IMG/VR virus record: IMGVR_UViG_3300031644_000008
Coordinates: 1 to 35,601 of that record
Length of the DNA: 35,601 nucleotides
Reading direction: 5' to 3' (one strand)
DNA from: a virus
Taxonomy: Duplodnaviria > Caudoviricetes
The translations under genes and the position numbers were made by a program. Positions within the stretch are counted from its first letter, which is position 1. Each line of letters starts with the position of its first letter. Below the pieces are notes generated by a model that searched no databases, was not told where the DNA came from, and saw only the letters and a list, made by a program, of their open reading frames with translations. Below are positions 347 through 3,828 of the stretch, piece by piece.

Positions 347-1780
347 ATGCAAGAATCTATGGATGACAAACGCTACAGAATGCAACAAGAAAAAAGACAA
401 GGCAAGATGTATGGCGGTAGAGCAATGTATGCTGATGGTAAGGTAGTTAGAGTTGAAAACACTACAATTCAAGAGCTTGAAGAAGATCCTGAACAATTTA
501 TGTCGTCTAAAGATGCTGAAGAACATCAAGAAAGGCTAGACCAAGAAGAAATGGATCGGAAGTTAGAAGAAGCTAACAGAAGATTTAAAGAAAATCAAAC
601 ACAAGGGTTTATGTCTGGTGGCTCTATATTAAGTTCTCCTGAACGTGAAGAGTATGCGGGGGGCGGCATAATAAAATTAATTGTAGAGGCTGTAAAGAAA
701 AGCAAGAGTGTTAAAAAAGGAAAACCACCTAAAAGAGCAGAAATACAAACAGCTATTAATGATGTCAAAGATAATAATTTTGATAAACTTAACCAAATTT
801 TAAAAAACAATAAGTCTGAACAGCGGGATTTAAGCAAGTTTGAAAACTATGCTACTGGCGGTGGGGGCAAAGGCGATTTAGATGCTTTTGTAACAAGCGT
901 TTTAAAACCTGCAACTGAAAATCAAGAAAGAACTAAATCTTTAATACGAGCTACAAAAACTTCAAGAGATGATAAAGCTGTAACTGGAGTAGCAGGATTA
1001 GGAGCAGGAACATTATTAGGCGGTGCAGGGACTCTTGCAGTCATGTCAGACTCTGAAGAAGAAAGAATAAATCCTGAAGACTATCCTACCTATAAAAAAG
1101 ATAGTGATAGTGGAAAAGCTTTTAGAGAAGCTCAACGAAAAGCTAAAAAAGAAAAAGCAGAGTTTTTCGAATTTGAAGGTCGTGAGTATAATGTACGCGA
1201 AGCTAAAAATGTAGGTGGAAAACTAAAGTACGCTGAAGGCTCTATGCTCATGCCTCCTGAAATGGAAATGGAAGACGAGATGCCTGAAGACACATACGAC
1301 AACATCCCAGAAGATGAGAAAGAAGCGGCAGAAGCTTCACAGCTACCAGATGATGAGATGGAAGAAGACTACGTAGGCTATGTACTAGGCGAGTCTTTAG
1401 ATACAGAAGAACAAGAATATTTAATGGGCGTTCTAGAAGGTGATGAACGTCTAAGTGGCATCTTTGATAAGGTTATGGATGTTGCAGGAGAGTTCTCTGG
1501 CGAAGGCGAAGTAAGTGGCCTTGGCACTGGAGTATCAGATTCGATTCCCGCAAGGTTATCGGATGGTGAATTTGTTTTCACCAAAAAGGCTACCGATCAA
1601 ATGGGCGCTGATCAGCTACAAACTATGATGGACGAAGCTGAGAAAGCCTTTGATGGTGGTTATTTAATGAAGAAAGCATTTGGAGGTCTAACAAGCGAAG
1701 ACGATATGGATTCGTATGATAGTGAAGAAGAGGTTAAGAAACAAATGATCTCTGCTAACCAAATGCCAAGTATACGATAA
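347..1780 (+). CDS. Head-associated/virion protein of unknown function with repeated xxxGG tags and a C-terminal GTGxSDSIPARLSDGEFV domain
   Basis: 477-aa ORF between portal and scaffold, GAGG upstream. Acidic low-complexity linkers, a Gly-zipper segment (GVAGLGAGTLLGGAG) and the motif GTGVSDSIPARLSDGEFVFTKKAT. Confidence 0.75.
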   Translation: MQESMDDKRYRMQQEKRQGKMYGGRAMYADGKVVRVENTTIQELEEDPEQFMSSKDAEEHQERLDQEEMDRKLEEANRRFKENQTQGFMSGGSILSSPEREEYAGGGIIKLIVEAVKKSKSVKKGKPPKRAEIQTAINDVKDNNFDKLNQILKNNKSEQRDLSKFENYATGGGGKGDLDAFVTSVLKPATENQERTKSLIRATKTSRDDKAVTGVAGLGAGTLLGGAGTLAVMSDSEEERINPEDYPTYKKDSDSGKAFREAQRKAKKEKAEFFEFEGREYNVREAKNVGGKLKYAEGSMLMPPEMEMEDEMPEDTYDNIPEDEKEAAEASQLPDDEMEEDYVGYVLGESLDTEEQEYLMGVLEGDERLSGIFDKVMDVAGEFSGEGEVSGLGTGVSDSIPARLSDGEFVFTKKATDQMGADQLQTMMDEAEKAFDGGYLMKKAFGGLTSEDDMDSYDSEEEVKKQMISANQMPSIR

Positions 1781-1898
1781 AGCTACTTCAGTTCGCTGAA
1801 CCCTTTATTATTTTTTTACCTAGAGGCCACCTTGAAGTATCAAGACCCTATATTACAAACGCGAGTAATATAGCCACCTTGAAAGACTAGCAAGCCCC
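1777..1898 (+). promoter_or_regulatory. Structured cis-regulatory RNA candidate: three GCYAC-hairpin-CCC units plus a 9-bp hairpin, directly upstream of the scaffold RBS
   Basis: Stems TTCAG/CTGAA (1787-1800), CTTGA/TCAAG (1831-1844), CTTG/CAAG (1878-1894), each preceded by GCYAC and followed by (A)CCC. CTATATTAC/GTAATATAG at 1848-1873. Confidence 0.6.
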
Positions 1899-1916
1899 AA
1901 CAGGAGTGTGATCAAT

Positions 1917-2765
1917 ATGTCAACTGCAAACGAACAAATGGAAGAACCAACTGCGAATCCGTATAACTCTAAGAAGGCTTGGCACACGCCAGATGCTCCA
2001 AGTAGAGGTAAAGCAGATACGCTTTTCTTTGAAGAACCCTCACAGGCTACCCGCTCTGCGGCCCCTGAACAAGTAGAAGAAGCTCCCAAAGGAAATACAA
2101 ATTATAAAAAACGATACGATGACCTAAAGAAACACTACGATCAGAAGATAGCTGATTTTAAACAGAAAGAACTACAGCTTACAGCGATGGCACAAGAAAC
2201 GCAACCTGCGTATGCCCCGCCTAAGTCAACCGAAGATCTTGAAAGTTTTAGAGAGCAGTATCCTGATCTATATGAAACTGTAGAAACCGTTGCACACTTA
2301 CAAAGTGAACAGCAACTACAAGCTTTGAAAACTAAGATGTCTGTTCTTGAAGAACGAGAAGCAAACATCCAACGTAAAGAAGCGGAGACTACACTGCGTT
2401 CTCGACATCCTGATTTTGAGGATATACGAGGCGATGACAAGTTTCACGAATGGGCTAAGGAACAACCAGAAGCAATTCAAGGTTGGATCTATGAAAACCC
2501 AGACAATGTTTCATTAGCGATAAAAGCTATTGATCTTTATAAGATGGAAAATGGTATTAAGATTGGAAGTAAGCAGAAGACAAGAAAATCACAAGCCCCC
2601 AAATCTTCAGCGGCAGACATGGTATCTACGAGAACTACTCAAATAGATTCCAAAGAGCCTAAGATTTGGTCACAACGGGAAATCACTAAACTGTCTATGG
2701 CTCAATTCGACAAGTATGAAGCCGATATTGACCTAGCTATTATGGAAGGCAGGATAGTAGATTAA
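1917..2765 (+). CDS. Capsid scaffolding protein
   Basis: Directly upstream of the capsid gene. Acidic N-terminus, coiled coil (YKKRYDDLKKHYDQK), HPDF motif, C-terminal 'IDLAIMEGRIVD'. AGGAG at 1902-1906 favours ATG 1917 over GTG 1908. Confidence 0.75.
   Translation: MSTANEQMEEPTANPYNSKKAWHTPDAPSRGKADTLFFEEPSQATRSAAPEQVEEAPKGNTNYKKRYDDLKKHYDQKIADFKQKELQLTAMAQETQPAYAPPKSTEDLESFREQYPDLYETVETVAHLQSEQQLQALKTKMSVLEEREANIQRKEAETTLRSRHPDFEDIRGDDKFHEWAKEQPEAIQGWIYENPDNVSLAIKAIDLYKMENGIKIGSKQKTRKSQAPKSSAADMVSTRTTQIDSKEPKIWSQREITKLSMAQFDKYEADIDLAIMEGRIVD
2045..2065 (+). promoter_or_regulatory. Fourth GCYAC-hairpin-CCC unit inside the scaffold coding sequence
   Basis: GGCTAC-CCGC-TCT-GCGG-CCCC, with flanking CAGG/CCTG able to form a lower stem. 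Confidence 0.5.
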
Positions 2766-2796: not shown

Positions 2797-3786
2797 ATGG
2801 CTTTTAACACATCAGACGCTCTATTTGAGCAAAGCACAGACACAAACGGTAACTTTGGTAACTCAGTTACTGGTCAAACTAACAGCTTCTTCCTACCCTC
2901 AGTCTTTTCTAAGAAGGTTCTTAACTTCTTCCGTAAGGCATCGGTAGCTGAAGCAATTACCAACACTGATTACAGTGGTGAAATCACAGGTTTCGGTGAC
3001 TCTGTAAAGATCATCAAAGAGCCAGTAATCACTGTAGCCGCTTATGAGCGTGGCGCTGACGTAGCTCAGACTAAGCTGACTGACATTGAAACTACTTTGA
3101 TCGTTGATATTGCTAACGCATTCAAGTTCAAAGTTGATGATATTGAAACAGCTATGTCTCACGTAAACTTTAAAGAAGTTGCATCTTCATCTGCCGCTTA
3201 CGCTTTGCGTGACGCATTTGACGCAGGTGTAATTGCTAAGATGTTTGCAGGTGTTTCAGCTTCAAGCCCTAACCACATCCTTGGTAGCGATAGTGCTACT
3301 GACCTAGCCGCAGGAACTCTTGACGGCACTGGTAACTTGGACATTGGTTTCGGTTCTAACGAGCATGATCCTTTGGATGTCATGGCACACATGGCGCGTC
3401 TTCTTGACGAGCAAAACATCCCAGAGGAAGGACGTTGGTTCTTGGCACCACCTAGCTTCTACGAGCAACTTGGACAATCTAGCTCTAAGTTAATGTCTGT
3501 AGACTTCAACGCCGGACAAGGTGGAATCCGCAATGGATTGGTATCTTCTGGTAAGCTACGTGGTTTTGATATGTACAAGTCTAACAACGTACCTGCTACT
3601 TCTAATGCCGCAGGTCAGATCCTTGCAGGACACATGAGTTCTACTGCAACGGCTCAGACCATTACAAGCACTGAGGTTCTTCGTGACCCAGATAGCTTTG
3701 GCGACATCTGTCGTGGTTTGCACGTTTATGGTGCTAAAGTTTTACGCCCTGACGCACTTGTTTCTGCGTTCTACGGTATCGACTAA
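2797..3786 (+). CDS. Major capsid protein (HK97 fold, P22-coat-like marine podovirus type)
   Basis: 329 aa, GGAG RBS, highly biased codons. Motifs FLPSVFSKKVLNFFRKASVAEAITNTDYSGEI..FGDSVKIIKEP and RDPDSFGDICRGLHVYGAKVLRPDAL. Confidence 0.9.
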   Translation: MAFNTSDALFEQSTDTNGNFGNSVTGQTNSFFLPSVFSKKVLNFFRKASVAEAITNTDYSGEITGFGDSVKIIKEPVITVAAYERGADVAQTKLTDIETTLIVDIANAFKFKVDDIETAMSHVNFKEVASSSAAYALRDAFDAGVIAKMFAGVSASSPNHILGSDSATDLAAGTLDGTGNLDIGFGSNEHDPLDVMAHMARLLDEQNIPEEGRWFLAPPSFYEQLGQSSSKLMSVDFNAGQGGIRNGLVSSGKLRGFDMYKSNNVPATSNAAGQILAGHMSSTATAQTITSTEVLRDPDSFGDICRGLHVYGAKVLRPDALVSAFYGID

Positions 3787-3801: not shown

Positions 3802-3828
3802 AGGGGGTGTAAAAGCCCCCTGATCTTT
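3802..3828 (+). terminator. Stem-loop after the capsid gene; weak intrinsic terminator or mRNA-stabilising hairpin
   Basis: AGGGGG-T / GTAAAA loop / G-CCCCCT, followed only by GATCTTT (short U tract). Confidence 0.5.

Follow-up and report, generated by a model that had tools for sequence, protein, structure and literature searches.

Autoregulation of the phage P22 scaffolding protein (gene 8) is said to have been described in 1985 by Casjens and Adams and by Wyckoff and Casjens, and phage translational operators include the MS2 coat operator and the T4 gene 32 and regA sites. In the accessible portion of a preprint (bioRxiv 2022.12.13.520362), the P22 scaffold is described as forming monomers and dimers, and its N-terminus is linked to autoregulation of translation; the literature searched yielded no defined RNA site for this self-regulation. 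Here we analyze the entire IMG/VR record IMGVR_UViG_3300031644_000008, a 35.6-kb stretch (hereafter the window) from a marine podophage with T7-like replication genes, and describe an asymmetric internal-loop motif, G-CYAC-Y / R-CC-C, that is present in four copies around the start of open reading frame (ORF) 1917-2765, a likely capsid scaffolding gene. The motif is a real, conserved, sense-strand cis-RNA element tied to the start of that gene; units 1 and 4 are local hairpins, whereas units 2 and 3 are a single nested rod that carries two loops in opposite orientation. Because its capsid protein shares 62% identity with that of pelagiphage HTVC115P and 45% with that of HMO-2011, the window phage is, on sequence grounds, an HMO-2011-type phage or a near relative, the group being described in the accessible part of PMC9038755.

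The window protein and P22 gp8 are alike in that the gene lies just before the coat gene, the product is elongated and helical with a helix-turn-helix at its C terminus, and an acidic, disordered N-tail of ~60 residues is followed by a basic block (61-80); post-transcriptional feedback is proposed for both. They differ in that P22 has a 13-nt portal-scaffold gap and lacks the loop, whereas the window has a defined, repeated and covarying RNA site. With the MS2 and T4 operators the locus shares a structured mRNA site at the initiation region and a protein-mediated ribosome block, here a proposed one, but its motif is a multi-copy internal loop in a two-fold arrangement, with a further copy inside the gene.

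The preliminary description of this locus had likened the motif to the C-loop, an RNA three-dimensional motif (group IL_73276.5), and by the definition in the accessible portion of PMC4551918 the likeness does not hold in detail. Both loops are asymmetric, with a long strand ending in A-C, two extra short-strand bases and a G-C far closing pair. The C-loop, however, has three unpaired long-strand bases, where we find four in 210 rod arms and 56 unit-1 contexts, a number set by the construction of our scan in a register that flank covariation supports (the CRP-1 loop has five). It further has C before A-C, where U is found in 153/210 rod arms and 32/56 unit-1 contexts. Its closing pair is U-A (positions 5-6), which is seen in 42/56 unit-1 contexts, with C-G in 210/210 rod arms; and it allows 0-2 short-strand bulges, in line with the two in 181/210 rod arms, the other 29 having three (ACC). 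The short-strand bases of the motif are nearly invariant, unlike those of the C-loop, the definition of which also includes crossing non-Watson-Crick pairs (C2/A6 and C4/7). As a covarying structure upstream of one gene family, the motif resembles the phage cis-RNA motifs of Rfam 15, Weinberg 2017 and Fremin 2023. Rfam 15 gave no matches in the window or in six cultured-phage loci, with two chance matches far below threshold in 1700-2150. Motif strings were absent from the four Fremin 2023 supplements searched, of six listed (PMC10690425), the alignment archives of which could still list the motif, and the accessible main text of Weinberg 2017 (PMC5737381) contains no matching terms, although its supplement could do so. 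A description was likewise not found in the accessible parts of the literature searched, including PMC7881722, PMC2441787, PMC3905863 and bioRxiv 2026.09.22.753630, and the motif is apparently unpublished.

Conservation of the loop motif

Scanned with a strict pattern, the whole window gave exactly four units (1777-1808, 1824-1849, 1873-1897 and 2043-2067), all on the + strand and none on the - strand, in exact agreement with the sequences and coordinates of the four loop-sharing hairpins drawn previously. Dinucleotide shuffles gave 0.26 matches per strand, and three matches within 300 nt in 0/200 cases; since the scan pattern was built from the four units themselves, this significance is overstated and conservation is the stronger test. 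Absence from homologous loci and shuffle-level frequency were both looked for; instead, at least one loop was present in 83/83 distinct leaders of HMO-2011-type relatives, ascertained by protein similarity alone and with 170 nt available, as against 4.3% of shuffles, and the claim of an undescribed-looking cis-RNA candidate stands. In pattern-first scans, with estimated totals of ~530-710 stored stretches each and counts taken among the matches listed, 96/120 viral loci precede the same gene family, the remaining 24 being single matches mostly within unrelated coding sequence; so do 84/120 loci found with a compact-form pattern and 109/110 metagenome loci with a readable ORF. Neither the pattern scan nor a covariance model found other clustered copies in the window.

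The G-U pairs fit the sense strand only, which points to a motif that acts as RNA and not as a DNA site. Eighteen RNA runs contain the stretch, and contigs cover the leader-gene junction in 4/4 runs examined, such contigs showing presence in RNA libraries only and not strand, ends or level.

One nested rod and two local hairpins

Because units 2 and 3 each contain CUUG and CAAG, their arms could pair either locally or crosswise; the preliminary description had drawn them as local hairpins. A parsing rule that favored neither the local nor the nested form was applied to 108 distinct four-arm leaders, of which three were dropped (L071 and L061, mis-anchored, and HTVC103P, with two separate hairpins). 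Across the central stems of the remaining 105, 22/840 mismatches arise under local pairing versus 1 under nested pairing; 12 informative rows favor the nested form and none the local one, and 93 cannot discriminate. In a 62-row alignment (the window and 61 of 90 listed loci, near-duplicates removed by eye), nested pairing was 90.9% paired with a covariation of 0.094, each reached in 0/500 shuffles, whereas local pairing was 80.2% paired (476/500 shuffles as high) with a covariation of 0.056 (498/500). RNAalifold also recovered the nested stems, with a shifted bulge register at the invariant outer loop, and changes that compensate the nested pairs fall on at least five separate branches of a quick tree of 86 proteins. 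In a second set, found by three arms only, the fourth arm was present in 118/120 loci and the flank pair was Watson-Crick in 80/80 distinct cases under nested pairing versus 8/80 under local pairing, both among the matches listed. Folding of the window sequence itself gave -16.9 kcal/mol for the nested form versus -2.8 to -12.4 for the local ones, with the nested inner stem at a pair probability of 0.98 and the two local stems at 0.015 and 0.002. Local hairpins for units 2 and 3 are rejected on the covariation and the window pair probabilities.

The nested fold also revises several details. The AC short strand assigned to unit 2 was an artefact of the local drawing and becomes ACC, the usual CC plus one A; the 9-bp hairpin at 1848-1873 is present as reported, but it caps the rod rather than linking two hairpins; and unit 3 does end upstream of the ribosome-binding site, though with a 4-nt gap to the Shine-Dalgarno (SD) AGGAG rather than directly before it. 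At the capping hairpin the second flank pair is kept in 104/105 leaders. The cap loop is often GACG, AACGCGA or CGAC, by subclade. In each of the 105 leaders, 3-9 nt separate the end of the outer loop from the SD core downstream, and 12-22 nt separate it from the start codon. In the window's clade the two rod loops are spaced by 14 nt on the 5' strand in 86/105, while HMO-2011, CRP-1 and kin have a compact rod in 37/42 distinct leaders, in 34 of which a 5-bp helix separates the loops, among the matches listed; the window-clade spacing would be about one helical turn longer than this compact rod. Pairing of CCU 1819-1821 with AGG 1902-1904 of the SD has a probability of 0.64 at 37 °C and 0.11 at 20 °C, and a matching CCU/AGG or UCC/GGA is present in the 29 ACC-type leaders.

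Unit 1, in turn, shows double changes at 10 of its 11 pairs in 34 distinct relatives (from 35 taken of 55 listed), against 0/500 shuffles; the G-C-Y-A-C and C-(C/A)-C bases remain constant, which bears out the earlier observation that the stems vary and the loop is kept. The rows were selected for pairing, which inflates their 98% paired, and the evidence lies in the variety of pair types. Because the loop bases stay fixed while the stems swap, they would imply a recognized surface. Unit 1 was found in 70/170 distinct upstream regions, and the upstream stop codon falls inside its 5' arm in 31/55 contexts and 4-12 nt before the arm in the other 24. The U-rich run noted after unit 1 is present in the window, but relatives carry at least seven T in 10 nt in only 19/56 contexts; with this unconserved tract, an A-U-rich basal stem and no call by the scanner, unit 1 was rejected as an intrinsic terminator. 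A unit-1 covariance model matched units 1 and 4 as well as SAR11-phage leaders, but not the rods or the hairpins of CHOED and MQM1.

Unit 4 was assessed with an anchor on the peptide only (A-T-x(2-7)-[AT]-P, in 111/151 distinct N-termini). The Thr codon is ACC in 103/111 (background 9.4%) and the second Ala codon is GCC in 102/103 (background 9.8%). Exceptions comprise seven sequences with ACT and seven with Thr-ACC replacing Ala-GCC, and in all six distinct examples listed the two are found together, so that U-A takes the place of the C-G closing pair. Selection of codons thus keeps unit 4 in place inside the gene.

Proposed scaffold self-repression and its alternatives

The product of ORF 1917-2765 belongs to phrog_13678, an unnamed family with no Pfam or PHROGs name and 6816 relatives. 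It is likely a capsid scaffolding protein, because of its position before the capsid gene, its predicted architecture and weak fold and feature matches: the predicted model (mean predicted local distance difference test, pLDDT, 83.6) has a disordered acidic N-tail, long helices and a helix-turn-helix at the C terminus, and the named fold matches among viral models are mostly scaffolding proteins, at a weak E of 0.02-0.9. Sequence searches gave no significant match to any named scaffold, PF09306 is listed for 0/130 family members, PDB sequence and fold searches returned coiled-coil noise only, and cellular genomes gave one 26-residue match only. R66 is invariant in 130 sequences (27-92% identity) and K64 and K65 are 82-87% conserved, within the protein's most basic block. 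A complex prediction for the C-terminus (246-282) with the capsid protein (score 0.13, mark 0.32) was used neither for nor against the assignment. Rhizobium phage homologs (L370, 1390-2184) are annotated as 'topoisomerase II domain-containing', a label that is probably a misannotation.

The loop is present by script in the leaders of 10/12 annotated phages encoding this protein, and by eye in RHph_I3_11 as well; carriers infect SAR11, SAR116, Roseobacter, Sinorhizobium, Vibrio and Aeromonas, with one further spring-water genome, and the only CHOED relative found in IMG/VR was CHOED itself. Scaffold leaders of phages with other scaffolds, P22 included, have the loop in 0/6 cases, and one loose match lies before the TM27B capsid gene. 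As the motif tracks this protein family in hosts from both the alpha- and the gammaproteobacteria, its distribution would favor a phage-encoded ligand.

What calls for explanation at the locus is the loop with its covarying stems, the nested two-fold rod, the fixed distance to SD and start codon, and the in-gene copy. We propose, with slightly better than even confidence, that this conserved structure is a translational operator at which unassembled scaffold dimers bind the paired loops and block ribosome loading, so that the scaffold represses its own synthesis. The scaffold would contact the RNA through the basic start of its first helix, and the two opposite loops beside the ribosome-binding site would suit a dimer. 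The ribosome footprint at initiation takes in the position of the outer loop, and because this loop lies so close before the SD core and start codon, rod-bound protein would overlap the initiating ribosome and repress translation; coat protein drawing scaffold into procapsids would then lift the block. Units 1 and 4 may be auxiliary sites, which would increase local concentration or contribute cooperativity and would be cleared as ribosomes pass. A steric block is more likely than an RNA refolding switch, because clamping the loop does not generally bury the SD. With a small candidate site that occurs in several copies and whose pairing is known, a helix that may bind it and has an invariant arginine, and cultured carriers on tractable hosts (Vibrio phage CHOED and Sinorhizobium phage phiM6), the question of scaffold autoregulation becomes directly testable. 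If true, self-repression would explain head-protein balance in an abundant marine phage group and provide a small new RNA-protein module, a value tempered by the fact that operators of similar general kind are already known.

Several observations weigh against scaffold self-repression. The motif is absent from P22 gene 8 between -300 and +400, and P22 1-9000 has no covariance-model match; because that gene lacks the loop, P22 is a precedent by analogy only. As for the protein, HHalign to P22 gp8 (single sequence or 20-sequence profile) gave a nonsignificant probability of 0.1-0.2%, a scaffolding PHROG is touched by only 3/130 family members, and PF09306, the nearest named Atlas cluster (0.92), shares only 127/256 features. 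In the RNA, the energy model gives the rod outer stem only a borderline probability, 0.41 at 37 °C falling to 0.06 at 20 °C and 0.01 at 10 °C, because arm 1823-1833 can self-fold; the inner stem of unit 4 is just 2 bp in 45/111; and HTVC103P and HTVC104P have two separate hairpins instead of a rod. Forcing the outer loop moved SD pairing down in 17 and up in 17 of 105 leaders, so that an SD-sequestering switch is not general; in the window's subclade, where CCU 1819-1821 can pair with the SD, the unpaired SD went from 0.29 to 0.21. Pseudoalteromonas phage Slicky01 encodes the protein family behind a 25-nt leader without the motif (L369, 1385-1411) and thus offers a control provided by nature. 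Finally, in the HMO-2011 clade an A-closed loop variant was found in 38/53 capsid leaders versus 3.4% of shuffles, where A was allowed only after inspection of the data and a G-only closing base gave 5/53 versus 4%; 33 of the 38 sit 52-61 nt before the ATG. Pure self-repression explains neither these capsid-leader copies nor the absence in Slicky01. In L288 and its relatives, the ~240-nt scaffold-capsid spacer is structured, and an A-TTAC-C / G-CC-T form of the loop closes it.

The capsid-leader copies, together with a loop variant in the phiM6 capsid leader, would instead fit recognition by a different phage protein (coat in its free form, portal, terminase or a late regulator) that adjusts the synthesis of scaffold and, for some clades, of coat along with it, and the host distribution fits any phage protein. 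We consider this unlikely, if far from negligible: capsid leaders in the window's own clade are ~29 nt long and have the motif in 0/92 (three cultured outgroup loci set aside), it is the copy at the scaffold ribosome-binding site that stays constant, and that locus is the only cluster in the window. More speculatively, the rod could present a two-fold symmetric RNA code recognized by the basic ends of a coiled-coil dimer of scaffold, in the manner of a basic leucine zipper but on RNA, with the scaffold closing its own ribosome-binding site and, where a loop lies 50-60 nt before the capsid start, acting on coat synthesis from the same mRNA as a direct scaffold:coat sensor; we hold this version to be distinctly unlikely.

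Recognition by a factor of the host, either a ribosomal protein or an operator binder of synthetase-like type, or direct sensing of a small ligand or ion, draws on the likeness to the ribosomal RNA C-loop in the accessible portion of PMC4551918 and on repeated C-rich pockets that would be compatible with ligand sensing. It appears improbable, as the C-loop features failed, the motif is confined to one phage gene family, and searches gave no Rfam match and no conserved alternative fold or terminator that could serve as an expression platform. An array that collects scaffold on the polycistronic mRNA encoding it and so seeds procapsids at the site of scaffold and coat synthesis, while hardly affecting translation, would accommodate up to four sites from the upstream stop to codon 51 and capsid-leader copies far from a ribosome-binding site; yet the copy that varies least lies against the SD, a position for which an assembly site would have no need, and a direct precedent was not found in the literature searched, making this quite improbable. 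Least of all do we credit terminator, processing, stability or DNA-level elements that need no translational regulator, for which the window's U-run and two RNA contigs beginning near 1780-1815 (at most a weak hint) can be cited, but which are contradicted by a U-run that is strong in only a minority of contexts and the A-U-rich basal stem of unit 1, two other RNA contigs that run through it, the sense-strand G-U pairs, and invariant loop bases and a codon-level copy left unexplained.

Organization of the locus

The motif units extend from the end of ORF 347-1780 across the 136-nt leader into the first part of ORF 1917-2765, the capsid gene being next downstream behind a 31-nt leader without the motif. 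Feature coordinates are collected below.

Table 1. Features of the motif locus in the window
Feature	Positions	Strand	Basis or remark
Upstream ORF, 477 residues, function unassigned	347..1780	+	Stop TAA 1778-1780 within unit 1 5' arm
Unit 1, local hairpin; loop CUAC 1783-1786 opposite CC 1801-1802	1776..1809	+	Pattern scan and covariation
U-rich linker, not kept as terminator tail	1809..1817	+	Sequence; contexts in relatives
CCU able to pair with AGG 1902-1904 of the SD, this subclade only	1819..1821	+	Pair probabilities
Nested rod; outer loop CCAC 1827-30 / CC 1895-96; inner loop ACC 1845-47 / CCAC 1874-77, reverse orientation	1825..1898	+	Covariation, folding
Nested rod pairs: GG 1825-26/CC 1897-98; CUUG 1831-34/CAAG 1891-94; irregular center; CAAG 1841-44/CUUG 1878-81		+	
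9-bp hairpin capping the rod; length and sequence variable	1848..1873	+	Pair probability 0.999
SD AGGAG	1902..1906	+	Sequence
Likely capsid scaffolding protein, 282 residues	1917..2765	+	Gene position, predicted model, weak fold and feature matches
Unit 4, local hairpin, codons 43-51; loop CUAC 2047-2050 / CC 2062-2063	2043..2067	+	Scan, covariance model, codon usage
Basic start of first helix (YKKRYDDLKKHYD, residues 63-75), candidate RNA-binding segment	2103..2141	+	R66 invariance, basic block
Major capsid protein	2797..3786	+	phrog_267, PF25209; 62% to HTVC115P capsid

The scanner found no sigma-70 promoter on the + strand near the leader. Directly after the capsid stop, 3802-3821 forms a G+C-rich, terminator-like hairpin that the terminator scanner did not call. 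A Manatee Spring phage carries an HNH endonuclease gene between its scaffold-like and capsid genes (L371, 2378-2947). The acidic product of ORF 347-1780 matches tape-measure PHROGs over residues 383-451 (E ~1e-7), with widely varying lengths among its relatives, and may be an internal or ejection protein.

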